64,000 nucleotides of DNA from an uncultured Acidobacteriota bacterium (GCA_963718645.1 OY970373.1:4202452-4266451), one strand, 5' to 3'. Shown: positions 569 through 61,641, numbered from the stretch's first letter. The notes: a model not told the origin generated them from the letters alone. Numbers and translations: made by a program.

Positions 569-1237
569 TCAAGAGTGTCCCGAGGGAGCAAAACCGTGTC
601 GCTCCAGAAGCACTTCGGTGATTTCCCCCGGATCGACCCCGCTTGCCTGGAGCAGAACGAGGAGGTGATAGAGCAGATCCGCGGCCTCTCCCGTCAACGC
701 TCGCCGCCGTTCTCCTCCCTCATCGGCACCGCGAAGCACGGAGGAAACCGCGGCGATCGCCGTCTCCACCCCCTCCTCCCCCACCTTCTGGGCGATCCGC
801 TCGATGCCTTGAGAGAGCAGGCGCGCCGTGTAGCTGGTCGCGGGATCGGCGGCGCGCCGCGACTCGAGCACCGCCGCCAGCCACCCCAACTCCAGCCGGG
901 CGGGGTTGGGCTCGAAGCAGCTCCGCGTGCCGCGGTGGCAGGTGGGGCCCGCCGGGAGGGCTCGCACCAGCAGCGCGTCGCCGTCGCAGTCGGCGGTCAC
1001 CTCGACCACCTGGAGGGTGTTGCCGGAGGTCTCCCCCTTCTTCCAGAGCGCGGACCGCGAGCGGCTCCAGAAGTGCGCGAAGCCGGTGGACAGGGTCTTC
1101 TCGACCGCCTCGCGGTCGGCGTAGGCGAGCATCAGCACGGCGCCGCTGCCGACGTCCTGGACGACGACGGGGAGCAGGCCGCGGTCGTCGAAACGGAGGG
1201 TGGAGAGGTCGATCATGGGCGGGTCAAAAGCCTTCAT
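569..1237 (-). CDS. hisI: Bifunctional phosphoribosyl-AMP cyclohydrolase / phosphoribosyl-ATP pyrophosphatase HisIE
   Basis: [28 protein letters not shown]...CHRGTRSCF...[20 protein letters not shown] shows HisI and HisE motifs. Its ATG at 1237 overlaps the hisF TGA (ATGA). Confidence 0.85.
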
Positions 1238-2070
1238 TTCCCCTCCACCCGCACCGGGAACCCCGCCGCCGCGATCGCCCGTTTGACATCCCCCACCGTA
1301 TACGTGCCCTGGTGGAAGATGGACGCGGCGAGGACGGCGGCGGCACCGGCGGCGAGGGCCTTCACGAGGTGCGCGGGCTCGCCGGCGCCGCCGGAGGCGA
1401 TCACCGGTACCGGCACGGCGGCGGCGGCCCGCTCGATCAGTTCCAGGTCGTACCCCCCCTGCGTGCCGTCGCGGTCGATGCTGGTCAGCAGGATCTCGCC
1501 GGCGCCGCGCTCGACCCCCTCGCGGATCCAGGCCAGGGCGTCGAGGCCGGTGCCCAGACGGCCGCCGCGCGTCACCACCTCCCAGCCGCCGTCTGCCCGG
1601 CGGGCGTCCACCGACAGCACCACGCACTGGCTGCCGAAGCGGCGTGCGAGCTCACCGAGCAGCTCAGGCCGCTCGACGGCGGCGGAGTTGATCCCGACCT
1701 TGTCGGCGCCCGAGCGGAGGAGCCGCGTGGCGTCCGCCTCGCTGCGCACGCCGCCGCCCACGGTCAGCGGGATGAAGACCTGGCTCGCCGTGCGGCGGAC
1801 CCAGTCCACGTCGGTGTCGCGCTCCTCGGGCGCGGCGCCGATGTCGAGGAAGACGATCTCGTCCGCCCCTTGAAGCGCGTAGCGAAGGGCGGACTCGGCG
1901 GGATCGCCCTGGTCGCGCAGGTTCTCGAACCGCACCCCCTTGACCACCCGGCCGGCGGCGACATCCAGGCAGGGAATCACTCTCCGGGCGAGGCCGCTCT
2001 CTCCCCCTCTCCCAGGAAGGGTGGAGGGAGGGCTGGGAGAGGGGGCCGGGGGGTGAGGGTCTACCCGCAT
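1234..2070 (-). CDS. hisF: Imidazole glycerol phosphate synthase cyclase subunit HisF. It has a repeat-encoded 27-aa N-terminal extension; an alternative GTG start at 1980 would drop the conserved LARR residues.
   Basis: ...[26 protein letters not shown]...[10 protein letters not shown] is canonical HisF. The only canonical start upstream of the conserved [11 protein letters not shown] is the ATG at 2070, which lies 10 nt inside the end of hisA. Residues 2-27 are encoded by repeat element A1. Confidence 0.8.
1983..2062. repeat. Repeat family A copy A1 (hisA/hisF junction)
   Basis: CTCCCCCTCTCCCAGGAAGGGTGGAGGGAGGGCTGGGAGAGGGGGCCGGGGGGTGAGGG. Confidence 0.7.
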
Positions 2071-2771
2071 ACGGCCAGAGCCTCCGCGACGGTGAAGGCC
2101 CCCTCGTAGAGGGCGCGGCCGACGATGGCGCCGGCGATCTCCGAAATCTGCCGTGCCGCTTCGAGATCGGCCAGGGAGTGGACGCCACCGGAGAGGAGCG
2201 CCGGCACCCCCGAGGTGCGCGCCACCCGCAGGGCGAGGTCGAGGTTGGGGCCGGTCATCATGCCGTCGCGCTCGACGTCGGTCACCAGCACCGCCGGGCA
2301 GGGGGCGCCCATCAGCCGGCCGCAGAGCTCGCCCAACTGGTGCCCCGCCCCCTCCTTCCAGCCGGCGATCCGCACCTCGCCGTGCGCGACGTCGAGGGCG
2401 GGGACCAACCGGCCAGGGCGCTCCTCGGCCAGCGCGCGGAAGGTCTCGACGTCGCGCGCCACCAGGGAGCCGATCACCACCCGGTCGCAGCCGGCGCCGA
2501 GCGCCCAGTCGATCGCCTCGCGGTCGCGCAGGCCGCCGCCGAGCTGGATGCTGGCGCCCACCGCCGCCATCCGCTCGATGAGCTCCCGCTGCGGCGCTTC
2601 GCCCAGGGCGGCATCCAGATCCACGACGTGGACGCGGACGACTCCGGCGCGGGCGTACGCCTCCAGCACGGCCACCGGATCGTCGTCGTAGACCGTGGCG
2701 CGCGCGTCGTCCCCCTGGCGGAGGCGGACGGCGCGGCCGTGACGGAGGTCGATCGCCGGGATCAGCTCCAC
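2061..2771 (-). CDS. hisA: ProFAR isomerase HisA
   Basis: [21 protein letters not shown]...[14 protein letters not shown]...GGV. Confidence 0.9.
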
Positions 2772-3382
2772 GCACCCTCCTCAGCCATTTGCAGAAAATT
2801 CGTCAGCAGCCTTAAGCCCGCCGCGCCGCTCCTCTCGGGGTGGAACTGGGTGCCCATCACCCTTCCGCTCGCGGCGACCGCGGGGAAGTCGCGGCCATGG
2901 ATGCAGCGGGCGAGGACACGCTCCTCCGGCACCCCGTCGGGGGCGTAGCTGTGGACGAAGTAGACGTAGCGGTCGGCGAGGCCCTCCAGCAGCGGATGAT
3001 CGGTCGCACCGTGCAGCCGGTTCCAGCCGATGTGCGGCACCGGCACGGTGGCCGGCAGGCGGGTGATCCGGCCGGGGAGGAGGCCGAGGCCGTCGGTGAC
3101 GCCGAACTCCTCCCCCTCGTCGAAGAGGATCTGGAAGCCGACGCAGATGCCGAGCAGCCAGGCGCCCCCCGCCAGCGCCTCGCGCAGCGCCCCCTCGACG
3201 CTCCCACGCACCGCCTCGCGGGGAGGCGCGAAGGCGCCGACGCCGGGGAGGAGCAGGCAGCGGGACCGCGCGATCCGCTCGGGGTCGGCGGAGATCTCCG
3301 CCGATCCTCCGACGTGCTCGACGGCGCGCACCAGATTGCCGAGATTGCCCACGCCGGCGTCGATGACGGTCGCCGCGCTCAT
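2762..3382 (-). CDS. hisH: Imidazole glycerol phosphate synthase glutamine amidotransferase subunit HisH
   Basis: [25 protein letters not shown]...LLPGVGAF...ICVGFQ...HSY...GTQFHPE carries the class I GATase triad motifs. The ATG lies at 3382. Confidence 0.9.
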
Positions 3383-3963
3383 GCCGAAAGCGTCCCTTTC
3401 GTGCTCGGCACCTCGGCGGCTCCGACGCGCAGGGCCACCGCCTGGCGGAGCGCCAGGGCCGCGGCCTTGAAGGCGGCCTCGGCGGCGTGGTGGCCGTTGC
3501 GGGCGGCGAGAATGTCGAGATGGAGCGTCAGCCGGCCGCGGTCGGCGAAGGCCTGAAAGAAGTCGGCGACCAGGGTGAGGGGGAAATCCGCGGTCACCCA
3601 GCCGCCGGCGATGGCGGCGGGCGCCGCGTAATGGAAGCCGCCGCGCCCCGAGAGGTCGACCACCGCCCGCGCCAGCGCCTCGTCGAGCGGCGCGTAGGCG
3701 TGGGCGAAGCGCACGATTCCCCGCCGCTCCCCCAGCGCATCCGCCAGCGCCTCGCCGAGGGCGATCCCGACATCCTCGACCGTGTGATGGAGGTCGACGT
3801 GGGTGTCGCCCGTGGCGGCGAGGTCGATCCCGAAGCCGGCGTGGGTCGTCAGCGCCGTCAGCATGTGGGCGAAGAAGCCGTCGGGAACCGCGATGCGCCG
3901 CTCGCCGCCGTCGAGGCGGAGGGCGAGCCGGATGCGCGTCTCGCCGGTGAAGCGCTCGACGAT
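3379..3963 (-). CDS. hisB: Imidazoleglycerol-phosphate dehydratase HisB domain. No canonical start codon: it is in one frame with hisC through repeat element A2.
   Basis: IVERFTGETRIRLALRLDGG...HHTVEDVGIALG...AARNGHHAAEA matches HisB. Conservation begins at codon ATC (3963). No ATG/GTG/TTG precedes it and no stop separates it from the upstream hisC frame. Confidence 0.7.
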   Translation of the reverse strand: MVERFTGETRIRLALRLDGGERRIAVPDGFFAHMLTALTTHAGFGIDLAATGDTHVDLHHTVEDVGIALGEALADALGERRGIVRFAHAYAPLDEALARAVVDLSGRGGFHYAAPAAIAGGWVTADFPLTLVADFFQAFADRGRLTLHLDILAARNGHHAAEAAFKAAALALRQAVALRVGAAEVPSTKGTLSA

Positions 3964-3971
3964 TCCTGTTC

Positions 3972-4070
3972 TTGTCTGTCCCTTCCTTTCTTCTCCCCCT
4001 CTCCCAGTGAGGGAGGGTGGGAGGGGATGGGAGAGGGGGCCGGGGGGGGGTGAGGGTTCGCCCCGCAGGG
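3972..4070. repeat. Repeat family A copy A2 (hisC/hisB junction)
   Basis: CCCTTCCTTTCTTCTCCCCCTCTCCCAGTGAGGGAGGGTGGGAGGGGATGGGAGAGGGGGCCGGGGGGGGGTGAGGG. Confidence 0.7.
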
Positions 4071-5127
4071 CCGACCTGACGGCACGCAAGGACGCGCCGG
4101 TCCCCACCGACACACGCAGGCACCCCGCCAATCCCGGATATCCGCCGACGTCGCGCACCCGGATGCTTCGCGCCTCCAGCTCCCGCTGGATTTCCTTCGC
4201 GCGCTCCGGCGGCGTGGCACGGACGAGCAAGAAATTGGCCTCCGAGAGGAAGACCTCGAAACCCGCCTCGGCCAGCATCGCGCTCCACTGCGGCCGGCGT
4301 GCCACCAGCAGCGCCACGCGCCGGCGCGCCGACGCCTCGGCCTCCAGGGCCACGCGGCCGGCGATCACGCCGGGGTGGCCGACGTTGTAGGGAAGCTTGA
4401 CCTTGATCAGCTCGGTCACTAGGCGCGGGTCTGCCAGCAGGTAGCCGAGGCGCAGGCCGGCCAGCGACCAGGCTTTGGAGAAGGTTCGGAAGAGGATCAG
4501 GTGGGGGTGACGCGCCAGCAGCGGCCGGTAATCGAAGCGGCAGAACTCGCCGTAGGCGTTGTCGAGCAGCAGCGGCGCCTCCAAGCGGTCCAGCAGCCGT
4601 TCGACGCGCTCCACAGGCAGGGCATCGCCGGTCGGATTGTTGGGCGTGCAGAGGAGGAGCGGCCGGCGGGGATGGCGCTCGACCTCGGCCTCCAGCTCAT
4701 CGACGGGAATCCGGAGGTCCGCCCGCGGCGGCAGGAAATGGGGCACGCCCCCGGCCTTGAGGACAAAGCTGCGATAGAGCCCGAAGCTCGGCTCAGCGCC
4801 AAGCACCTCGCTGCCGGGGGCTACCAGGGCCGTCAGCGTTACCGATAGGAGCTCGTTCGAGCCGTTGCCCACCAGCACCCCCGCGAAGGGGTGGCCGTGC
4901 AGCCGGCCAAGGTCGCGCCGCAGCTCGTCGGCATGGAAATCGGGATATCTCGCCCAGTCGGCCGCCAGCAACCGCTCGGCCATCTCGATCTTGAAGCGAC
5001 GCGGGAGATCCCAGGGGACCTCGTTCTGATCGAGCTTGTGGCGGCTCGGCGTCAGGTCGAGGTGGTAGGCGCCTAGAGCGCGTAATTCGGGACGCACGAA
5101 GAGGGAGGGATCGGAGGCGTAGCTCAA
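4057..5127 (-). CDS. hisC: Histidinol-phosphate aminotransferase HisC. It reads without a stop through repeat A2 into hisB, giving a 582-codon ORF from 3379 to 5127. The 3' boundary is approximate.
   Basis: MSYASDPSLFVRPELRALGAYHLD...LCTPNNPTGDAL...RTFSKAWSLAGLRLGY (class II aminotransferase; PLP lysine in SK). The C-terminal ...RGEPSPPPGPLSHPLPPSLTGRGGEERKGQTRTG is repeat-encoded. Confidence 0.8.
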
Positions 5128-5149
5128 GCGGCCAACCCCCGATGGATGT

Positions 5150-5356
5150 GGGGGCTCCGAAGGAGTCCAGGCATGTAGCCTGGGGCGTGAGCCCCAGGTT
5201 GAGCGATTTCAAAAGTTCCAAAAGCCCCGAAGGGGCGACGGCAGCCTACAGCGGAGCGATTAGCTGCCGTCGCCCCTTCGGGGCTCCCGGGTTGGGTCAG
5301 GGCCCTTTCCTGGGGCTCACGCCCCAGGCTACATGCCTCGGCTCCTTCGGAGCCCT
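5150..5356. repeat. Repeat family B copy B1: ~207-bp nested palindromic (MITE-like) element between hisD and hisC
   Basis: The 47-bp terminal inverted repeats are GGGCTCCGAAGGAGTCCAGGCATGTAGCCTGGGGCGTGAGCCCCAGG and CCTGGGGCTCACGCCCCAGGCTACATGCCTCGGCTCCTTCGGAGCCC. The inner palindrome is GCCCCGAAGGGGCGACGGCAGC...GCTGCCGTCGCCCCTTCGGGGC. Confidence 0.75.
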
Positions 5357-5374
5357 CAAGAAGGAACGACGATC

Positions 5375-6676
5375 TCACCCCAACCTCCTCCGCGCCGCCG
5401 CCGCGTGCGCGGGCAATCCCTCAACGTCCGCCAGGGCCGCCGCCGCCGCCGCGCGATGGCCGGCCGCCACGGGCGAAAACCGTACGGTGTGGCTCCGCCG
5501 CAGGAAATCCTCGACGCCGAGGGCGGAGGCGAAACGGGCGTTGCCGCAGGTGGGGAGGACGTGGCTGGGACCCGCCACGTAGTCGCCGAAGACCTCGGGT
5601 GTCGAGGCGCCGAGGAAGATGGCGCCGGCGTTGCGGACGTGCAGGGCGAGCACCTCCGCCTCGCGCCCTACGAGCTGCAGGTGCTCGGGCGCGATCCGTT
5701 CCACGAGGTCGAGCGCCTCCTCCAGGCCGGTCACCACCAGCGCGGCGCCGAAGCTTTCGAGGGAGGCGCGCGCCGTGTCCGCCGTGGCGAGATCGGCGAG
5801 TTGGCGGTCGATCTCGGCCGAGACGCGTTTCGCGAGCTTGGCGTCGGTCGTGATCAGCACCGCGGCGGCCTGCGGGTCGTGCTCGGCCTGGGCCAGCAGA
5901 TCGGCGGCGACCTCGGCGGCGTCGGCGTCCGGATCGGCCACGATCACCACCTCGCTGGGACCGGCGAGGCCGTCGATCCCGACGTCCCCCACCACCAGCT
6001 TCTTCGCCGCGGTCACCCAGGCGTTGCCGGGCCCGGCGATCTTGTCCACCCGCCGGATGGTCTCGGTGCCGTAGGCGAAGGCCGCCACCGCGTGGGCGCC
6101 CCCCATCCCCCAGATCTCGGTGACGCCGAGGCGGGCGAGGGTGTAGCGCAGGGCCGGATTGGCGCGGTAGGCGGCGGGCGGGGTGGCCACGGCGATCTCA
6201 CCCACCCCGGCGACGCGCGCGGGAATCACGGTCATCACCACGGTCGACGGATAGCTGGCGCGGCCCCCTGGCACGTAGAGGCCGACGCGAGCTAGCGGCG
6301 TCACCCGCTCCTCCAGCTCGACCCCCTCCTCTTCTAACCGGTAGCCGGTCCGCGCCTGCGGCGCGTGGAAGCGCTCGACGGCGGCGATGGCGCGCTCCAG
6401 CGCCTCGACGAATCCGGCGGGGAGGCCGGCGCCGTCCGCCGCGTCGTCCGCCGCGGGCGAGAGGGCGAGGCCGGCGACCGCTTCCGCCTCGGCGCCGTCG
6501 AGCTTCCGGGCGTAGTCGAGCAGCGCGCGATCCCCCTGCTTGCGGACGTCGCGGACGATCTTTCCCGCGCGGACCAAGGTCCTGGCGTCGAGCACAGTTT
6601 CGCCGCGTCCGAGGAGGCGCTCGATGGCGCGGCGGCCGGCGCGGGAGTCGGTGGGGAGAATCGCGATCGGGCTCAT
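5375..6676 (-). CDS. hisD: Histidinol dehydrogenase HisD
   Basis: [14 protein letters not shown]...[17 protein letters not shown]...[11 protein letters not shown]...QAEHDP. The ATG at 6676 overlaps the hisG TGA (ATGA). Confidence 0.9.
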
Positions 6677-7299
6677 GAAACCACTCCCGCCGCCTCGAGG
6701 CGGCCGATCCAGTCGTTGAGCAGCGCGCGGTGGCGCTGGTAGGACGCGCGGTTGACCACCAGGCAGGCCGCGACCTCGGCCACGGTCTCGATCTCCACCA
6801 GGTGGTTTTCGGCCAGCGTGCGCCCGGTCTGCACGATGTCGAGCGCCAGCTCGGCCAGGCGGAGGACCGGAGCGAGCTCGATCGAGCCCGAGAGCTTGAC
6901 GATCTCCGCTCCCCAGGCACGCCCGGCCACCACGCGCCGCGCCGTGTTCGGATATTTCGTCGCCAGACGTACCTGAGTCCCCGCGGCGGGGAGCTCGGTT
7001 TCGTGGCCGATGAAAGAGAGGCGAGACCGCCCCTCGATCAGCCGCACCGGCACCAGCAGGTCGCCGTCCACCTCCTCCAGCACGTCGCTGCCGACGATGC
7101 CGCAGTCGGCGATGCCGTGGGTGACGTAGAGCGGCAGGTCCCAATCCTTGAGCGACAGCACCTCGATCCCCTCTTCGGGCAGGCTCGTGCGCAGGCTGCG
7201 CCCCGCGCCGTCGAGCCCCTCGAGGCCGATCCCCGCCGCCCGGAATGCCGCGAGCGCGGAATCGAGGTTGCGCCCCTTCGGCAGCGCCAAGCGGATCAT
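6673..7299 (-). CDS. hisG: ATP phosphoribosyltransferase, short form, HisG
   Basis: MIRLALPKGRNLDSALAAF...LSLKDWDLPLYV. The upstream in-frame [16 protein letters not shown] is repeat A3 read in the other orientation. Confidence 0.85.
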   Translation of the reverse strand: MIRLALPKGRNLDSALAAFRAAGIGLEGLDGAGRSLRTSLPEEGIEVLSLKDWDLPLYVTHGIADCGIVGSDVLEEVDGDLLVPVRLIEGRSRLSFIGHETELPAAGTQVRLATKYPNTARRVVAGRAWGAEIVKLSGSIELAPVLRLAELALDIVQTGRTLAENHLVEIETVAEVAACLVVNRASYQRHRALLNDWIGRLEAAGVVS

Positions 7300-7362
7300 C
7301 CCCTCACCCCCTGGCCCCCTCTCCCGTCCCCTCCCACCCTCCCTCACCGGGAGAGGGGGAAG
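7300..7362. repeat. Repeat family A copy A3 (hisZ/hisG junction, opposite orientation)
   Basis: CCCTCACCCCCTGGCCCCCTCTCCCGTCCCCTCCCACCCTCCCTCACCGGGAGAGGGGG. Confidence 0.7.
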
Positions 7363-8320
7363 CGGACGCTTCGAGCAATCTTTCCAGGCTGAGCGAAAAG
7401 CCCACCGCCGGCACCTCAGCGCCGAGGGCGCGGAACAGGCGGTCGTAGCGCCCGCCGCCGCCCACCGGCAGCGCGGCGGCGCCGGCGTAGGCGTGGAAGA
7501 CGAGCCCGTCGTAGTAGGGGCGGTCGCCGTCCCCGCCGGCCAGCCGCGGATCGAGGCTGTTGCAGGCGAACTCGGCGAGGTCGATCGTCAGCAGCACGCC
7601 GGGGAAGTCGGCGGCCAGCTCGCCGCGCAGCCTGTAAAGCGCGCGCAGGCGCTCCGCCGCCGCCGCCGCTCCCAGCTCCTCCGGCCGGCCGGGGACGCCG
7701 CGCTCGACGATGTCGAGGAGCGTCGAGCCGGCCCGCCGCACCTCGCCGCGCTCGCGCCGCGCCACCGCCGAGGCCAGCCGGAGTGGGTCGTCGACCCCCG
7801 CCGCCAGCAGCAGCCCGTCGAGCGCGCCGGCGAAGCCGAGCACCACCTGCAGGCCGGCGCTCCCGGACGCCGTCGCCAGCTCCAGGAAGAGGCGCAGCAC
7901 CTCGCGCTCGGCCGTCTCGCCGGGGAGGCCGAGCAGCTCGGCGCCCACCTGGTAGAACTCGCGCGCCCGCCCCGCCCGCTCCTCCTGGTAGCGGATGACG
8001 TCGCCGCGATAGTAGAGGCGGAGCGGCAGCGCGAGGGACGCCAGCCGGGGAGCCAGCAGCCGCGCCAGCATCGGCGTGAAATCGGCGCGCAGGGCCAGCA
8101 GCTCGCCGTCGCGGTCGACGAAGCGGTAGAGCTCGCCGCGCGTGGCGGGCGTCAGCATCGCCTCGTAGGGTTCCAGGTAGTCGAGGATCGGCAGGATCAC
8201 CTCGCCGTAGCCCGCCGCCTCCAGCCGCGCCACCAGCCGCTCCTCGGCGGCGCGCCGCCGCCGCGCGCTCTCGAACAGCAGGGCGGCGACGCCGGTGGGG
8301 AGAGCGGCCGAGACCCTCAC
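7304..8320 (-). CDS. hisZ: ATP phosphoribosyltransferase regulatory subunit HisZ (HisS-like), with a repeat-encoded C-terminal tail
   Basis: ...ALLFESARRRRAAEERLVARLEAAGYGEVILPILDYLEPYEAM...YYDGLVFHAY... shows the class II aaRS-like fold. The GTG start at 8320 overlaps the upstream TGA (GTGA). The last 20 aa, SASPSPGEGGWEGTGEGARG, are encoded by repeat A3. Confidence 0.8.
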   Translation of the reverse strand: MRVSAALPTGVAALLFESARRRRAAEERLVARLEAAGYGEVILPILDYLEPYEAMLTPATRGELYRFVDRDGELLALRADFTPMLARLLAPRLASLALPLRLYYRGDVIRYQEERAGRAREFYQVGAELLGLPGETAEREVLRLFLELATASGSAGLQVVLGFAGALDGLLLAAGVDDPLRLASAVARRERGEVRRAGSTLLDIVERGVPGRPEELGAAAAAERLRALYRLRGELAADFPGVLLTIDLAEFACNSLDPRLAGGDGDRPYYDGLVFHAYAGAAALPVGGGGRYDRLFRALGAEVPAVGFSLSLERLLEASASPSPGEGGWEGTGEGARG

Positions 8321-9864
8321 GGTGCCGGCCTCAGTACCGGCCTCAATTCGGGATCGAGCCCGGCCGTCCGGCGCGCCAGGTCCAGCGGCAGCTCGCGGCC
8401 GGTCATCAACTGGAACTGGCCGCGCGCCTGATCCACCAGCACCTCGCGGCCGTCGATCGCTACGGCGCCGCGCGCCGCCGCCGCGGTCAGCAGCCGCGTC
8501 GGCCGGTCCATGAAGTAGACGAGGTCGATCACCACCGCGCCGGGGCGGAGGTGGTCGACGGCGAAGGGCAGTGGATCGTCGGCGCCGCGGCCCAGCGAGG
8601 TGGCGTTGACCAGCAGGTCGAAGGCGGACGGATCGAGCTCGGTGAGCGGCCGGAAAGTGACGTGGAGCTGCTTGGCGGCGAGGTACGCGGCCGAGCTCTT
8701 GCCGCGCTCCGGATCGCGGTTGAACAGTGTCACCCGCGCGCCTGCCCGGTGGAGCCCCGCCACCCCCGAGCGGCCGGCGCCGCCGGCGCCGACCACCGCC
8801 GCCTCCATCCCCTCGATCGCCAGGCCGCGGTCGCGTAGCGGCAGCACCACGCCGTCCGGATCGGTCGCCTCGGCCTCCCACACCCCCTGGTTGCAAACCA
8901 GGGTGTTGGCGGCGCCGATCAGGCTGACCAGCGGGCTCTCCGCGCCGCACACCGCCAGAGCCGACTCCTTGAACGGCGCGGTCACCGAGAGGCCGCGGAT
9001 GGAGAGGCCGATGGCGTCCAGCGCCGCGTTCTCCACCACCTCCAGCCAGAAGTCGCCGAAGGAGCCGGTGTGGAACGGCAAATAGACCGCCGGGATCCCC
9101 AGGGCACGGTAGGCGGCGTTGTGGATGCGGGGGGAGAGCGAGTGGTTGACCGGATTGCCGACGAGGCCGAACACCGATTCGATCGGCGGCAGCTCGGGCA
9201 GGCCGTAATCGCCGATCAGGCGGGCGAGCGAGATCTGCCCGGGTGCGCCCGGCACGTCGCCCAGCGCGGCATAGACCACCGGCGCGCCGAGACGAGGGGC
9301 GAGCAGGCGCGTCCAGGCGCCGCCGGGGCCGGCGGCGAAGGCGGCGACGTCGCGGCGGCCGAGCGAGGCGAGCAGCAGCAGCGCCGCCACCTCGTCCCCC
9401 GGCTGCACGGCGGTGGGGATCAGCTTGTAGAGCGCGGCGCCATGGACGGCCATCCGCTCGAAGATGGCGGTGAGGCCGTCGAGCCCCGGCGCCGGACCGT
9501 GCCAGGAGATCACCCGTTTCCCGGCGGGCACCGCCTTGAGGACATCCAGCGTTAGATCCCGCGCCGCTTCGAGGTCGACGAAGTCGTAGCGCGCCGCCGC
9601 GTCGATCAGCCGCTGCCGGCGCCGCTCGGGGGCGCCCTCGGAGGCGCCCCCCTCGGCGCGGCTGCGCAGCGTGTAGAGGAGCTTGCCGGGAAAGATGCCG
9701 CGAAGTTGGGCCGCGTCGAGGTCGCCGACGAGGTCGCCGCGGACCTCCAGCCAGTCGACCCCCTCCAGGTCGGACGCCCGCGGCAGGGCGCTCCCGGCGG
9801 GGAGGGTCGTGAGGGTCGCGACCATCGTGGCGCGGACCCGTGCGGCCGGCGGCGCTGTCTCCAA
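8317..9864 (-). CDS. Bifunctional 3-dehydroquinate dehydratase (type I) / shikimate dehydrogenase (AroD-AroE fusion), first gene of the his transcription unit
   Basis: The N-terminal half has LEVRGDL and a type I DHQase-like region. The C-terminal half has GLVGNPVNHSLSPRIHNAAYRALGIPAVYLPF...VVGAGGAGRS (AroE). TTG start at 9864, or an internal ATG at 9828. Confidence 0.7.
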   Translation of the reverse strand: METAPPAARVRATMVATLTTLPAGSALPRASDLEGVDWLEVRGDLVGDLDAAQLRGIFPGKLLYTLRSRAEGGASEGAPERRRQRLIDAAARYDFVDLEAARDLTLDVLKAVPAGKRVISWHGPAPGLDGLTAIFERMAVHGAALYKLIPTAVQPGDEVAALLLLASLGRRDVAAFAAGPGGAWTRLLAPRLGAPVVYAALGDVPGAPGQISLARLIGDYGLPELPPIESVFGLVGNPVNHSLSPRIHNAAYRALGIPAVYLPFHTGSFGDFWLEVVENAALDAIGLSIRGLSVTAPFKESALAVCGAESPLVSLIGAANTLVCNQGVWEAEATDPDGVVLPLRDRGLAIEGMEAAVVGAGGAGRSGVAGLHRAGARVTLFNRDPERGKSSAAYLAAKQLHVTFRPLTELDPSAFDLLVNATSLGRGADDPLPFAVDHLRPGAVVIDLVYFMDRPTRLLTAAAARGAVAIDGREVLVDQARGQFQLMTGRELPLDLARRTAGLDPELRPVLRPAP

Positions 9865-19119: not shown

Positions 19120-19221
19120 ATGATGGGAGGACGGTGCGGACCGGGCAGGTACCGCGCAAAGATACACTCTCCGCGACATGAGGGAAAAACGCAGTCCCGG
19201 AATTTTGCCCCGGCAGGGGCA

Positions 19222-19370
19222 ACGGCATGTAGCCTGGGGCGCAAGCCCCAGGAAAGAGGTGCCAGGCGATTCCCCGAGCCCCGAAGGGGCGACGGCAGAT
19301 CATCTTTCCGAGAAAGACCGCCGTCCGGGTTCAGGGCGTGTGGCTTGCTGGGGCGTCCTGCGCTCCGAAG
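19222..19370. repeat. Repeat family B copy B2 (partial or rearranged)
   Basis: GCATGTAGCCTGGGGCGCAAGCCCCAGG plus AGCCCCGAAGGGGCGACGGCAG. It shares 20-30-mers with B1. A short B-like fragment lies at 54896-54925. Confidence 0.65.
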
Positions 19371-19377
19371 CCTCACC

Positions 19378-19501
19378 CGTGGCCTGCGACCTCATCCCCT
19401 ATCCCCTTCTCCTAAAGGAGAAGGGGGACGACTGCGATGCGGCCCCCGTCAGGCCCTCCCTCTCCTTTAGGAGAGGGACCGAGGGTGAGGTCGCAGGCCA
19501 C
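19378..19501. repeat. Repeat family C copy C1: ~124-bp palindromic element
   Basis: GTGGCCTGCGACCTCATCCCCTATCCCCTTCTCCTAAAGGAGAAGGGGG ... CCCTCCCTCTCCTTTAGGAGAGGGACCGAGGGTGAGGTCGCAGGCCAC. Confidence 0.7.
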
Positions 19502-20836: not shown

Positions 20837-21050
20837 AAACATTGTTTTTTCCGTTTTTCCATTGTTTGGCGGCTTCAAACATTGTTTGCGAGCCCCAAAC
20901 ATTGTTTTTTCGGCTCGAACAATGTTTGAGACGCTGAAACATTGTTTGAAGCCCTGAAAGATTGTTGGAAGCGCTGGAACATTGTTGCAGGCGGGAAAAC
21001 ACAGTTTGAAGCCCTAAAACATTGTTCGAAGCCCTGAAACATTGTTCAAG
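20837..21050. repeat. Eleven direct tandem units with an exact 20-bp period, each having a near-palindromic core AACAWTGTT (AAACATTGTT)
   Basis: Cores lie at 20841, 20861, 20881, 20901, 20921 (inverted: GAACAATGTT), 20941, 20961, 20981, 21001 (ACAGTT), 21021 and 21041. The region is locally AT-rich within a 70% GC genome. It sits between the GT4 stop (20808) and the GT-C start (21083), and the last unit overlaps a putative -35. Confidence 0.85.
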
Positions 21051-21082
21051 CCTCTTTTCGCCTGCGGTAGACTCCGCCTCCC

Positions 21083-23254: not shown

Positions 23255-24360
23255 CGCCCCCCACCATCGCCGTCGACCTCCGCGCCCTGGTCCCCGCCGC
23301 GACCGGGATCGGGGTCTACACCCGGTCGCTGCTGCTGGCGCTGGCCGAGCGCGGCGGGGCGCGCTATGTCGGGATGGCTCACCGGGCACCTCGCGAGGCC
23401 GGGGAGCTGGAGGCCGCCGGGATCGCGATCGAGCGGCAGGAGGCGCCTCTGGGCGTGATCTGGCAGCAGCTCGCCCTCCCCCGCCGGCTGGCGCGCGGCG
23501 ACGTCGACCTCTTCTGGTCGCCGCTGATCACGCTGCCCCTCCGCTGCCCGGTGCCGGCGGTGGCCACGGTCCATGACCTGACCGTGCTGCTCTACCCCGA
23601 GACGCACACGCTGAAGGTCCGCCTCAGCCTCCTCCCCTTCCTCCGCCCCTCCTTCGAGGCGGCGCGGCGGCTGGTGACGATCTCCGAGGCCACGGCGCGC
23701 GACCTCGCCTTCCATTTTCCTCAGTGCAAGGAGGCGATCCGCGTGGTCTACCCGGGCATCGATCCCGAGTTCAAGCCGGGAGATCCCGCGGAGATCGCGG
23801 CGACGCGGCGGGAGCTGGGGGCGCCGGAGGGGTACGTGCTCTATGCCGGTACCCTGGAGCCGCGCAAGAACGTCGGCGCCCTGCTCGACGCCTGGACGGC
23901 GCTGCGGGGCGAGGACCCGCGGATGCTGCCGCTGGTGCTTGCCGGCCCCTACGGCTGGGGGAGCGAGCGGCTGGCGCGGCGGATCAGGGCGCTGGCGCCC
24001 GAGGTGACGGCGACCGGCCGCGTCGACCGCGCGCGGCTGGTGCGGATCTTCCAGGCCGCCCGCGTCTTCGTCTACCCCTCGCTCTACGAGGGGTTCGGCT
24101 TCCCCGCCGCCGAGGCGCTCGCCTGCGGCGTGCCGGTGGTCGCCTCGAACACGTCCAGCCTCCCCGAGGTGGTGGGCGACGCCGGCCTGACGGTCGATCC
24201 GCGGGACACCCCCGGCCTCGCCGCGCGCATCCGCGCCCTCCTCGAGCAGCCCGACAAGGCGGCCGAGATCGGCGCCCGCGGCGTCGCCCAGGCCGGCCGC
24301 TTCCGCTGGGACCGCGCGGCGACGGAGATGGAAGCGGTGTTCCGCGAGGCGATGGCGTAG
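23251..24360 (+). CDS. Glycosyltransferase family 4
   Basis: MTPPTIAVDLRALVPAATGIGVYTRSLLLAL...GTLEPRKN...PSLYEGFGFPAAEALACGVPVVAS. Confidence 0.85.
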   Translation: MTPPTIAVDLRALVPAATGIGVYTRSLLLALAERGGARYVGMAHRAPREAGELEAAGIAIERQEAPLGVIWQQLALPRRLARGDVDLFWSPLITLPLRCPVPAVATVHDLTVLLYPETHTLKVRLSLLPFLRPSFEAARRLVTISEATARDLAFHFPQCKEAIRVVYPGIDPEFKPGDPAEIAATRRELGAPEGYVLYAGTLEPRKNVGALLDAWTALRGEDPRMLPLVLAGPYGWGSERLARRIRALAPEVTATGRVDRARLVRIFQAARVFVYPSLYEGFGFPAAEALACGVPVVASNTSSLPEVVGDAGLTVDPRDTPGLAARIRALLEQPDKAAEIGARGVAQAGRFRWDRAATEMEAVFREAMA

Positions 24361-24478
24361 GAAAGAACACGGACGGACACGGACGGACATGGACGAGCAC
24401 GGACCCAGGGACCGCGGGACCGGCCTCCGGTGGTTTATCGTCCGTGGCGGTCCGTGTGGGTCCGTGCTCGTCCGTGCA
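24361..24478. repeat. Repeat family D: long imperfect hairpin of ACGGAC-rich arms immediately after the stop codon (TAGGAAAGAACA...)
   Basis: GAAAGAACACGGACGGACACGGACGGACATGGACGAGCACGGACCC ... GGGTCCGTGCTCGTCCGTG. A second copy lies at 40839-40937 after recA. Confidence 0.6.
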
Positions 24479-24541
24479 GGTCATGGCGCGCAGGCAAGAT
24501 TCCGTTAGAATCACGATTTCCTGGCCCCTCGGAGACCCCGT

Positions 24542-28525: not shown

Positions 28526-28861
28526 ATGGCTACGAGTGCAAGCAAGCCGGCGAAGAAGACCGCCGCCAAGAAGACCGCGACGAAGGCCGCAGCCCCGGCC
28601 AAGAAGACCGCCGCGAAGACCGCGGCCAAGAAGCCGGCGGCGGCGAAGAAGACCGCCGCGAAATCCTCGGGCGCCGCCAAGAAGGCCACCAAGACCGCTA
28701 CCGCCAAGAAGGCTCCGGCGAAGAAAGCCACGGCCGCCAAGAAGGTGACCGCAGCGAAGCCGGCCGCCGCGAAGAAGACGGTCGCGAAGAAGACGGTCGC
28801 CAAGAAGACCGTCGCGAAGAAAACCGCCGCCAAGAAGACGGCCTCTAAAAAGTCTTCCTGA
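28526..28861 (+). CDS. Histone H1-like Lys/Ala-rich nucleoid-associated protein (AKKTAAKK repeats)
   Basis: The RBS AAAGGAG lies 7 nt upstream of the ATG. MATSASKPAKKTAAKKTATKAAAPAKKTAAKTAAKKPAAAKKTAAK... throughout. Confidence 0.65.
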   Translation: MATSASKPAKKTAAKKTATKAAAPAKKTAAKTAAKKPAAAKKTAAKSSGAAKKATKTATAKKAPAKKATAAKKVTAAKPAAAKKTVAKKTVAKKTVAKKTAAKKTASKKSS

Positions 28862-39797: not shown

Positions 39798-40838
<1,041 letters not shown>

Positions 40839-40937
40839 GAAAGAACAGGGACGAGCACGGACGAACAGGGACTCACACGGACCGGCACCGTGTTCGTCCC
40901 AGTGAGTCCGTGTCCGTCCCTGCTCGTCCGTGGGGTG
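40839..40937. repeat. Repeat family D copy 2: long ACGGAC-rich hairpin between convergent recA and the DUF4388 gene (probable bidirectional terminator)
   Basis: TAGGAAAGAACAGGGACGAGCACGGACGAACAGGGACTCACACGGACC...GGTGTTCGTCCCAGTGAGTCCGTGTCCGTCCCTGCTCGTCCGTGG. Confidence 0.6.
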
Positions 40938-48552: not shown

Positions 48553-48620
48553 CCTCCGAAACCTCACCCCCGGCCCCTCTCCCGTCCCCACGCGCCCTCC
48601 CTCACCGGGAGAGGGGAGAC
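48553..48620. repeat. Repeat family A copy (A4) in the MopB leader
   Basis: CCTCACCCCCGGCCCCTCTCCCGTCCCCACGCGCCCTCCCTCACCGGGAGAGGGG. Confidence 0.7.
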
Positions 48621-48764
48621 AAGCAAAGCAAGGAGTCAGGAGCCGCCTCAGCGAAGGGCCCCCCGGACGCCTGACGGAAGGCCGGTTGCGCAGCCCTCCA
48701 TTTGTCCGCAAGCCGCTGCCGATTCCACTCGAAGCGTCGCCGATTCTCGCCCTGCCGGAGCCGA

Positions 48765-50796: not shown

Positions 50797-50878
50797 CTGC
50801 CTGATGGGGGCGGCGTCGCAGTCGTCCCCCTTCTCCTTCCGGAGGAGGGGATAGGGGATGAGGTCGCAGGCCACGGAA
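50797..50878. repeat. Repeat family C copy C2 (half element, inverted)
   Basis: GGGGGCGGCGTCGCAGTCGTCCCCCTTCTCCTTCCGGAGGAGGGGATAGGGGATGAGGTCGCAGGCCAC is the reverse complement of the left half of C1. Confidence 0.65.
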
Positions 50879-54919: not shown

Positions 54920-55095
54920 CGGGGCGAGCCCCTCACTCCCCAACCCCTCTCTCCCAGCCCTCCACCCACCCCTGCCGGGGAGAGAGGGGCTAAAGCAAGA
55001 AAAGAAAAGGCTGGAAGTTGTTTTTAGACTAACCACTCCCTCTTCTCCCCGTCAGGGTGGGTGGAGGGCTGGGAGAAGAGGGCCGGGGTGATGAG
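54920..55095. repeat. Two inverted copies of repeat family A (A5 54920-54992, A6 55028-55095) flanking a 40-bp AT-rich core
   Basis: CCCCTCACTCCCCAACCCCTCTCTCCCAGCCCTCCACCCACCCCTGCCGGGGAGAGAGGGG ... aagaaaagaaaaggctggaagttgtttttagactaa ... CCCTCTTCTCCCCGTCAGGGTGGGTGGAGGGCTGGGAGAAGAGGGCCGGGGTGATGAGGG. Confidence 0.7.
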
Positions 55096-55296
55096 GGCCA
55101 CCCTCGCATCCAAGGATGCGTCCCCTTCAGAGACACCCCGTCCCATCGGGGTGACATCTGTCCTAGCAACTCATCCACCTCATCCTCATCATTTCCATTT
55201 AAAATCAAACCGTTCCGCGTTCCGGCTCCCAGGAATTTTCCTGGCCCGCCCCTTGCTCTCTCTAAAGGTGGATCGTCTCGGGCAAAGGAGAAAGAC

Positions 55297-61518: not shown

Positions 61519-61526
61519 GGCACTCC

Positions 61527-61616
61527 CCTCCTGGGACCGCCGGCGTCCCGCCGGCTCTAACTCCGCTTTTGATTAGTTTTAGTTAGAGCCGGCGGGACGC
61601 CGGCGGTCCCAGGAGG
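61527..61616. terminator. Perfect 36-bp inverted repeat with an 18-nt loop between convergent genes
   Basis: CCTCCTGGGACCGCCGGCGTCCCGCCGGCTCTAACT ccgcttttgattagtttt AGTTAGAGCCGGCGGGACGCCGGCGGTCCCAGGAGG. Confidence 0.7.
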
Positions 61617-61641
61617 GCGGAGGACTTCCAGGGGGCTGTCT

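Follow-up and report, generated by a model that had tools for sequence, protein, structure and literature searches.

In a 64,000-nt stretch of DNA from an uncultured Acidobacteriota bacterium (GCA_963718645.1, OY970373.1:4202452-4266451), the histidine operon carries a short palindromic repeat, here called family A, at three of its gene junctions. The whole stretch is referred to as the window, and coordinates are counted from its first letter; the his operon occupies its minus strand. We consider it highly probable that palindromic repeats settled on overlapped his boundaries and are read there as protein, providing a tail for HisZ, a head segment for HisF and the linker of a joined HisC-HisB polypeptide. 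An earlier note on this DNA, made from the sequence alone, had placed the repeat at these three junctions, in both orientations, and at three other sites. A profile built from the copies finds six of them in the window (E-values 3e-10 to 7e-14), in agreement with those positions (Table 1).

The setting in which these repeats are found is one of tightly packed genes. For comparison, his loci were taken from 80 species-representative genomes of Thermoanaerobaculia (Acidobacteriota), with all his genes mapped by tblastn. The best matches of the fused hisC-hisB open reading frame (ORF) are metagenome-assembled genomes of this group, and the nearest relative, L001, is one of them (DASWQX010000836.1). 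Overlaps of the RTGA type are the rule at all the his junctions of these relatives, and the comparison shows stop/start overlaps of 4-10 nt as the ancestral junctions. The window has 4-nt ATGA/GTGA overlaps at aroDE/hisZ, hisG/hisD, hisB/hisH and hisF/hisIE, and overlaps of about 10 nt at hisH/hisA and hisA/hisF. Genes packed in this way would leave no intergenic space for insertions. An insertion at a boundary would survive only if both flanking genes were still translated, and a repeat that survived there would then be read as protein.

At the hisC/hisB junction, the two genes are continuous over 582 codons, and HisB has no start codon, as the earlier note had observed; between the family A element and the core of the imidazoleglycerol-phosphate dehydratase (IGPD) domain, the window contains no ATG, GTG or TTG. 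A stop/start pair between hisC and hisB, named at the time as what would speak against continuity, was sought in the relatives and is not present in the close ones. The hisB gene is in the hisC frame at 53 species loci, all 53 of which are stop-free across the junction, and among them 37 distinct junction lengths occur between 69 and 501 nt, all divisible by three. In L001, which is 95% identical, the linker matches that of the window except for one missing CCC codon. More than half of the fused loci (29/53, including the window) lack ATG, GTG and TTG over the 15 codons that lead up to the IGPD core, and ATG is found there in 3. At the 23 unfused loci, hisB never shares the hisC frame; it has its own Shine-Dalgarno site and overlaps hisC by ATGA/GTGA, as in L045, where gaggaggcgcgATGAcc gives HisB MTPRIGRVERTT. 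What could have been taken for a peculiarity of this one sequence belongs to a large clade with many different linkers, some of them without family A.

The fused protein of the window consists of a HisC domain at about residues 6-357, a linker at 358-384 and an IGPD domain at 385-581. Both domains are complete in Pfam terms (PF00155 at 31-350 and PF00475 at 417-560). Full-length HisC and IGPD chains in the PDB match 6-357 and 385-581 separately, and the PDB has no solved chain spanning both domains. In 27 fused proteins, the lysine motif for pyridoxal phosphate, SKAW (K218), and the HHxxE motifs (H447/H448/E451 and H546/H547/E550) are invariant. The best-scoring 120 protein clusters from NCBI, JGI, ENA and Logan, at 71-95% identity and 561-661 aa, all combine PF00155 with PF00475. 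The hisC-hisB fusion is thus a real, selected, clade-wide gene and not a frame error. Because the ORF is in frame and stop-free at varied junction lengths, start codons are missing, and the domains are intact, we infer a single bifunctional polypeptide with HisB as its C-terminal half. The repeat would serve as the disordered-looking Pro/Gly linker between an aminotransferase and the IGP dehydratase, and the idea of a tolerated Pro/Gly-rich linker in the earlier note is backed by the comparison with relatives. IGPD yields imidazole-acetol phosphate and HisC transaminates it, these being the consecutive steps 6 and 7 of histidine synthesis.

The linker is the most changeable part of the protein across species. 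In many of them it carries family A or subfamilies with compensated stems (LITPALFSRPLPPPSPGEEGE; HHPGPLLPSPSPRPGEEGE), and some linkers have a second, oppositely oriented copy (PLSRGGGWEGAGEGTGVRA). Other species have different repeat-like peptides in the same place (VGAGLVPARAG.., RAGTSPAPT, IRPIRPIRQIRPI and KGPKGLQGLKGQ); the linkers of L012 and L019 are short and have no hairpin, and those of the deep branches L051-53, L058 and L072 are Ala/Gly-rich stretches of 100-170 residues. A perfect hairpin of at least 9 bp is present in 39 of the 53 linkers, where 4.9 would be expected, and a G-quadruplex (G4) motif is likewise present in 39/53. The linker therefore appears to be a permissive site at which several repeat families accumulate, duplicate and get replaced, invariably in multiples of three, and the peptides that they encode would be neutral. 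Two other repeat families of the window may have left traces among these linkers. One is a third family, of CACGGAC/GTCCGTG 10-bp units forming long palindromes at 24348-24486 and 40826-40932. The peptide IRPIRPIRQIRPI, found in some linkers (P0024, P0032 and P0033 among them), may stem from a related repeat, which is a guess from the motif. The other is a perfect 37-nt palindrome with an 18-nt loop at 61526-61617 (CCCTCCTGGGACCGCCGGCGTCCCGCCGGC...), and the AGEDAGGPR of the L038/L039 linkers looks like its translation.

At the hisZ/hisG junction, nearly all relatives end hisZ with ...LERLLEASA*, and the stop overlaps the hisG start (gcGTGAtcc). The repeat of the window sits immediately 5' of this ancestral hisG start with its G-rich strand as mRNA, and the insertion broke the RTGA overlap between the two genes. 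HisZ has gained 18 repeat-encoded residues, SPSPGEGGWEGTGEGARG, while the 'SA' that precedes them is ancestral; the earlier proposal that HisZ ends in repeat-encoded sequence before the hisG ATG holds up in this comparison. The hisZ stop is now TGA 7306-7304, supplied by the element's own GGGTGAGGG and lying 4 nt before the hisG ATG. A Shine-Dalgarno-like AGGGGG run, also from the element, is 7 nt upstream of the same ATG. With its TGA and G-run, the element restores both a stop and a Shine-Dalgarno-like site in the 4-7 nt ahead of the hisG ATG. Separate insertions at this junction are found in L006, L013 (where the tail has 80 residues), L024 and L067. All of them have lengths divisible by three, contain no stop and leave the RTGA overlap in place, a pattern that appears to be as expected from selection for continued translational coupling.

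Some annotation hazards were noted in the same region. GTG 7347, within the repeat, opens a longer hisG ORF (6673-7347, minus strand, 224 aa) that gene callers could take wrongly, and spurious long ORFs traverse all the repeats on both strands. In one relative, hisZ continues into hisG as a single ORF (L066:7093-8697, ..LERLLEAAVVIRFALPKGR..), which is either a HisZ-HisG fusion or a long-read indel error; the hisC of L066 is likewise broken across frames.

The hisA/hisF junction reads gcggtATGcggaTGAgcggtccc...ctcgcccgg (ATGCGGaTGAgcggtccc..ctcgcccgg) in relatives, with the hisF ATG in the 3' end of hisA, 8 codons before LARRVIP. The window keeps this ATG (2070-2068), at which hisF started ancestrally and still starts in nearly all relatives, and it now stands 26 codons before LARR. 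The family A copy comes directly after the hisA TAG, within hisF codons 5-22. HisF carries an in-frame insertion after codon 4, with the ancestral ATG still its start. Initiation at an ATG inside hisA had been foreseen in the earlier note and is retained here; the 27-residue extension given there comes down to a net 18 residues. An alternative start at GTG 1980-1978 would lose the conserved LARR, the codon is GTC in many relatives, and there is no Shine-Dalgarno site at a usable distance from it. Among the relatives, the site is filled only in L001, as it is in the window, so the insertion is recent. In the Thermotoga HisF-HisH structure, the Arg of LA(K/R)R acts as a gate where the barrel faces HisH. 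The HisF insertion therefore lies near an interface and is nevertheless tolerated in two species.

Family A itself is 60-66 bp long, and not up to 95 bp as had been proposed, and about 75% C on one strand. It consists of an asymmetric head CCCTCACCCCNGG, a stem of 11-13 bp (CCCCCTCTCCC/GGGAGAGGGGG) and a C-rich loop of 17-23 nt. The pattern CCCTCTCCC-N15-45-GGGAGAGGG has four matches in the window against 0.00 expected. The six copies found by the profile occupy four unlinked places. Those of the his operon are singlets, and the other three are intergenic; two of these form an inverted, REPIN-like doublet (54938-54988 paired with 55038-55088, 49 nt apart). On its G-rich strand, every one of the six copies has a canonical G4 motif (G3+ N1-7, four times), for example GGGAGGGTGGGAGGGG; of the 12 motifs of this kind in the window, 6 belong to family A. 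A G4 inside the hairpin loop is predicted by the G-quadruplex model of ViennaRNA, and for the mRNA-sense strand at hisZ/hisG the predicted G4-in-loop fold comes to -72 vs -33 kcal/mol.

The stem is supported by covariation instead of by energy, since the hairpin energies of five of the six window copies are no better than those of dinucleotide shuffles. In an alignment of 46 copies, taken from the window and its relatives, pairing holds for 94.7% of the stem cells, and changes on both sides of the stem occur in 28 cells vs 8.7 in shuffles, with none of 500 shuffles as high. Two stem positions change jointly from C-G to U-A in 12-13 sequences; the covarying cells define subfamilies and so represent few independent events. 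No Rfam family reaches its gathering score anywhere in the window, and our literature search found no paper on this repeat.

The reading of family A as protein owes much to its composition. The his copies are free of stops in all three frames of their C-rich strand, which is almost pure C, while one or two frames of the G-rich strand are interrupted by stops, among them the TGA within GGGTGAGGG. Stop-freeness is thus largely compositional, and only the multiple-of-three length needs explaining. The earlier statement that no his copy has a stop in the operon frame stands in this compositional sense for hisA/hisF and hisC/hisB, and fails for the hisZ/hisG copy, whose own TGA ends hisZ. The two in-frame C-rich copies, at hisA/hisF and hisC/hisB, use different frames and so encode different peptides in their 5' halves. 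A search of 1.28 Mb from relatives gives 48 family A hits, 36 of them in the hisC/hisB linker. Copies that are translated, within or between overlapping his ORFs, make up 3/6 in the window and 41/48 in the relatives.

Several observations weigh against this account of mobile repeats absorbed as neutral peptide. Comparison of filled with empty sites at hisA/hisF and hisZ/hisG reveals no recognizable target-site duplication or terminal inverted repeat; the inverted repeat of family A lies inside the element, and nothing at the 3' end matches the 5' head CCCTCACCCC. No transposase turned up within the 64 kb, where no search aimed at transposases or at RAYT (the tyrosine transposases associated with REP sequences) was made. 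With none of these marks identified, the argument for mobility is drawn from the dispersed copies and their presence/absence polymorphism. On that basis, family A is a dispersed and probably mobile palindromic repeat resembling REP and MITE elements (repetitive extragenic palindromes and miniature inverted-repeat transposable elements). Many of the linker copies are probably one inherited insertion, so that 36/48 overstates the independent hits. In L001, L003, L022, L037, L002, L011, L013 and L006, the stem arms of the linker copy match those of the window at 22-24 of 24 positions, against an identity of 49-79% at the hisB/hisC third codon positions of these eight genomes. Such a contrast suggests that the hairpin or its peptide is under constraint, or that gene conversion has acted, more than it suggests pure neutrality, with the proviso that low-complexity composition raises the chance identity of the arms. 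Finally, a single uncleaved HisCB chain is a prediction from the sequence, and an AlphaFold2 model of the fused protein from the 27-sequence alignment leaves the linker unreadable (mean predicted local distance difference test score, pLDDT, 52.7; predicted template-modelling score, pTM, 0.33).

The fused state is far wider than the repeat copy of the window. In a neighbour-joining tree from 1,835 concatenated His-protein columns, the fused taxa are monophyletic in 0 of 100 bootstraps. Two pairs of unfused genomes fall among fused ones. L045/46 are nested in the clade made up of the window and the L024-L035 group (100%), with an unstable placement there, as sister to the subclade of the window (59%) or outside both fused groups (35%); L055/70 are nested among fused lineages (88%). 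A single fusion event explaining all of these was dropped for that reason. Either at least three fusions, or one fusion and two splits, would be required, and repeated fusion is favoured because the unfused genomes share the outgroups' design of a Shine-Dalgarno site plus ATGA. From an ATGA overlap there are two easy routes to fusion, namely a 1-nt deletion or an upstream stop-free insertion of 3n+1 length. Another idea, that the HisB start had decayed into the variable residue of R-[TMIV]-G ahead of VER, was set aside, since in an alignment with the unfused L045 (MTPRIGRVER) the old Met falls three residues further upstream.

The fusion of HisC with IGPD is also found outside this clade. A search of 1.84 billion cluster representatives yields about 40 further HisC-IGPD clusters at 50% identity, with 31-42% identity to the fused protein. 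They have the same order of PF00155 and PF00475 (P0139/P0279, Planctomycetota; P0283), and one group is named Planctomycetota by NCBI. Their representatives align as one stretch, are about 20-45 residues shorter and have short linkers with no sign of a repeat. We had considered that the fused assembly might require a linker of at least about 23 residues, and these shorter proteins, aligned straight through, led us to drop that idea. Reviews of his fusions list hisA, B, D, E, F, H, I and N as fused, and not hisC (PMC1963479, PMC10138114), and our literature search found no paper describing a hisC-hisB fusion in Thermoanaerobaculia. The earlier description of HisC-HisB as a non-standard architecture is right as far as these reviews go, and is qualified by the further clusters, including those of Planctomycetota. 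The architecture appears to have arisen in several phyla and to be essentially undescribed. Other unusual his architectures were seen in passing (P0124, P0173, P0188, P0283 and P0296 among others). They include HisD-HisC proteins of about 780-830 aa in metagenomes, a metagenomic protein of 1,001 aa that ends in HisC-IGPD, a metagenomic HAD(HisN-like)-HisC-IGPD of about 740 aa (P0283), and HAD-HisC of about 570 aa in DPANN archaea (Nanoarchaeota/Woesearchaeota).

The fusion of the window's clade may owe its origin to a repeat, or repeats may have gathered later in a linker that was already there. It is tentatively possible that a repeat insertion made the fusion in one step, by placing a stop-free element of 3n+1 length just upstream of the ATGA overlap. 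The ancestral junction is such an overlap with hisB in the +1 frame, the elements land exactly on overlaps of this kind, and the C-rich strand is open in all frames. The fused state and a family A-type hairpin also co-occur in the clade of the window, and the unfused L045/L046 nested there have neither. In L028/L043, the sequence after the element, R-L-RRATVER, aligns with the MRRATIER of unfused proteins, with Leu at the position of the old Met. Yet a 1-nt deletion at the ATGA overlap would serve equally. Moreover, deeper fused groups do without family A (L036/38/39, and L051-53/58/72 with their long Ala/Gly-rich linkers), and fusions in other phyla have short linkers, so that a repeat is not needed for fusion. 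Where the first insertion began and ended is also past reconstruction. A broader version would make stop-free repeats on RTGA overlaps into one-step devices for fusion and extension, which made the HisC-HisB of the window's clade, with the fused state arising repeatedly and the linker hairpin/G4 selected for a role in mRNA or DNA such as a pause or a processing or regulatory site. We regard this combination as somewhat doubtful.

A functional role for the repeats, with a hairpin/G4 that sets translation or transcription rates (a pause between the folding of HisC and that of HisB, or control of hisG initiation by a G4 lying 4 nt upstream) or with a peptide selected as a spacer, seems unlikely to us. 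The conserved stem arms of the linker copy argue in its favour, set against the lower synonymous identity, as do the covariation of the stem across subfamilies, the G4-in-loop fold predicted on the mRNA-sense strand at hisZ/hisG, and the stop and Shine-Dalgarno-like run that the element's end gives to hisG. Against these stand the majority of relatives, which have no insertion at hisZ/hisG or hisA/hisF and keep the plain overlaps, and the linkers in the same clade without a family A hairpin (L004, L010, L012, L015 and L019). The Planctomycetota-type fusions, with short linkers aligning straight through, the differing 5'-half peptides of the two in-frame copies, and hairpin energies no different from those of shuffles in five of six copies tell the same way.

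It is also very improbable that HisB arises as a protein of its own, whether started within the ORF at a non-canonical codon (such as ATC, codon 388) or cut free in the linker, with the open frame incidental. There is a purine-rich run (GGGGGAGAAGAAAGGAAGGGA) upstream of the IGPD core, and within 15 codons before the core ATG is found in 3 loci and GTG or TTG in about 20. With HisB initiated independently, however, there would be no reason for the linker to stay in frame and free of stops through at least 37 length changes; the position of a start is not conserved, 29/53 loci have no canonical one, and each unfused relative has a clear Shine-Dalgarno site with ATG or GTG. The earlier note had held internal initiation of HisB open, and this same lack of starts in fused loci makes it unlikely. 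An assembly or frame error, in which a miscounted C-run in the repeat masks a stop/start pair between separate hisC and hisB, is next to impossible despite the nine-C run in the linker, which is error-prone on some sequencing platforms, given the continuous ORF in 53 independently assembled genomes and the best 120 clusters, the 37 in-frame linker lengths, the L001 linker differing by one CCC codon, and a HisB without a start codon in any case.

The reading we prefer, of repeats absorbed at overlapped gene boundaries, has a near parallel in the Rickettsia palindromic elements (RPEs), which occur in frame within many unrelated genes (Ogata et al. 2000, 2002, reviewed in PMC10969869). Like them, family A is dispersed, both between genes and in frame inside metabolic genes, and the host protein is not destroyed. 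RPEs are about 100-150 bp, make up sequence families of their own and are confined to Rickettsia, whereas family A is 60-66 bp, belongs to Acidobacteriota (Thermoanaerobaculia) and has a G4 motif in its loop. RPEs are AT-rich, the opposite of family A. Their insertions lie within domains, whereas those of family A lie on stop/start overlaps as tail, head or inter-domain linker. RPEs are the closest analogue in behaviour; no kinship in sequence is expected, and family A is set apart by size, composition and host.

Family A also has features of the REP/REPIN elements mobilised by RAYT, among them the REPs tagged with GTAG or CGTC (PMC2817692, PMC3733652), being a short GC-rich imperfect palindrome with dispersed copies and an inverted doublet. 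Such elements are extragenic and usually lie at gene ends. The loop of family A is long in comparison, and half of the window's copies are translated and not extragenic. Its 46-copy consensus, CCCCTCACCCCCGGCCCCCCTCTCCC...GGGAGAGGGGGGA, has no GTAG or CGTC head on either strand, unlike REPs. A further likeness is to intragenic small repeats of the MITE, ERIC and BOX type, non-autonomous elements that can extend or join host ORFs (PMC10969869, PMC2229807); terminal inverted repeats or target-site duplications of the MITE kind are not clearly recognizable when filled and empty family A sites are compared.

As for the fusion, the known his fusions are hisNB, hisIE, hisHF/HIS7 and HIS4 (Fani et al. 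2007, PMC1963479; Del Duca et al. 2023, PMC10138114). HisC-HisB resembles hisNB in that IGPD has an N-terminal partner and two his enzymes are fused in one lineage. It differs from the known fusions in that its fused state is not monophyletic in the clade and its linker is hypervariable and repeat-laden.

If this account is right, a soil phylum that is free-living and GC-rich resembles Rickettsia in having taken selfish palindromic repeats into its essential biosynthetic proteins. Operons with tight overlaps would steer insertions into tails, heads and inter-domain linkers, and mobile DNA would thereby have a concrete way of extending proteins and possibly of fusing genes. HisC-IGPD joins two consecutive histidine steps, is conserved in at least 53 species and has no listing in the main his-fusion reviews. 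HisCB would offer a natural system for testing the arrangement of an aminotransferase dimer on the IGPD 24-mer and the channelling of imidazole-acetol phosphate. For annotation, pipelines name the fused protein by one of its two domains, and they may choose wrong starts (GTG 7347, hisG).

Table 1. Genes of the his operon and family A copies in the window
Feature	Position	Strand	Remarks
HisC-HisB linker	3976..4056	-	holds family A copy 3989-4051, C-rich strand as mRNA; encodes PSPPPGPLSHPLPPSLTGRGGEE
Family A copy, hisA/hisF	1997-2058	-	profile search
Family A copy, hisC/hisB linker	3989-4051	-	nhmmer E=2e-13; 12-bp stem, 21-nt loop
Family A copy, hisZ/hisG	7302-7365	+	C-rich strand on +; his mRNA has G-rich strand
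Family A copy, intergenic	48562-48623	+	upstream of molybdopterin-oxidoreductase-like gene
Family A copy, intergenic	54932-54994	+	spacer after fadB-like gene
Family A copy, intergenic	55032-55096	-	spacer after fadB-like gene
aroDE-like gene	9864..8317	-	upstream of hisZ
hisZ	8320..7304	-	GTG start overlaps stop of aroDE-like gene; PF13393 ends at residue 315 of 338
hisG	7299..6673	-	ATG 7299-7297
hisD	6676..5375	-	
hisD/hisC spacer			247 nt
hisC-hisB, one ORF	5127..3379	-	582 codons, TTG start
hisH	3382..2762	-	
hisA	2771..2061	-	TAG stop 2063-2061; hisF start codon within 3' end
hisF	2070..1234	-	ATG 2070-2068; 10-nt overlap with hisA 3' end; PF00977 from residue 30
hisIE	1237..569	-	

The spacer between hisD and hisC (5130-5374) holds a larger nested palindromic element unlike family A, here called family B, with arms at 5149-5198 and 5309-5358 that are 94% complementary and related copies at 19215-19325. 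Family B directly follows the ancestral GTGA of the hisD stop and hisC start; relatives read ggaggaggttggGGTGAagg there, without a spacer. The hisC start of the window is now TTG 5127, inside a second 'ggttggccgcTTGA', which resembles a duplicated target with the old start/stop overlap.

Other repeats were noted elsewhere in the window. An inverted pair of 78 nt (19377-19454 and 50799-50876) is 92% complementary at a distance of 31 kb. About ten tandem 20-bp units with AACATTGTT, partly inverted, make up 20838-21066; unlike the genome, which has about 70% GC, this array is AT-rich, and it resembles a set of protein-binding sites. At 28538-28852 there is a coding low-complexity AKKT/AAKK repeat of 13 copies with a 15-nt periodicity, typical of a histone-H1-like or AlgP-like basic tail.

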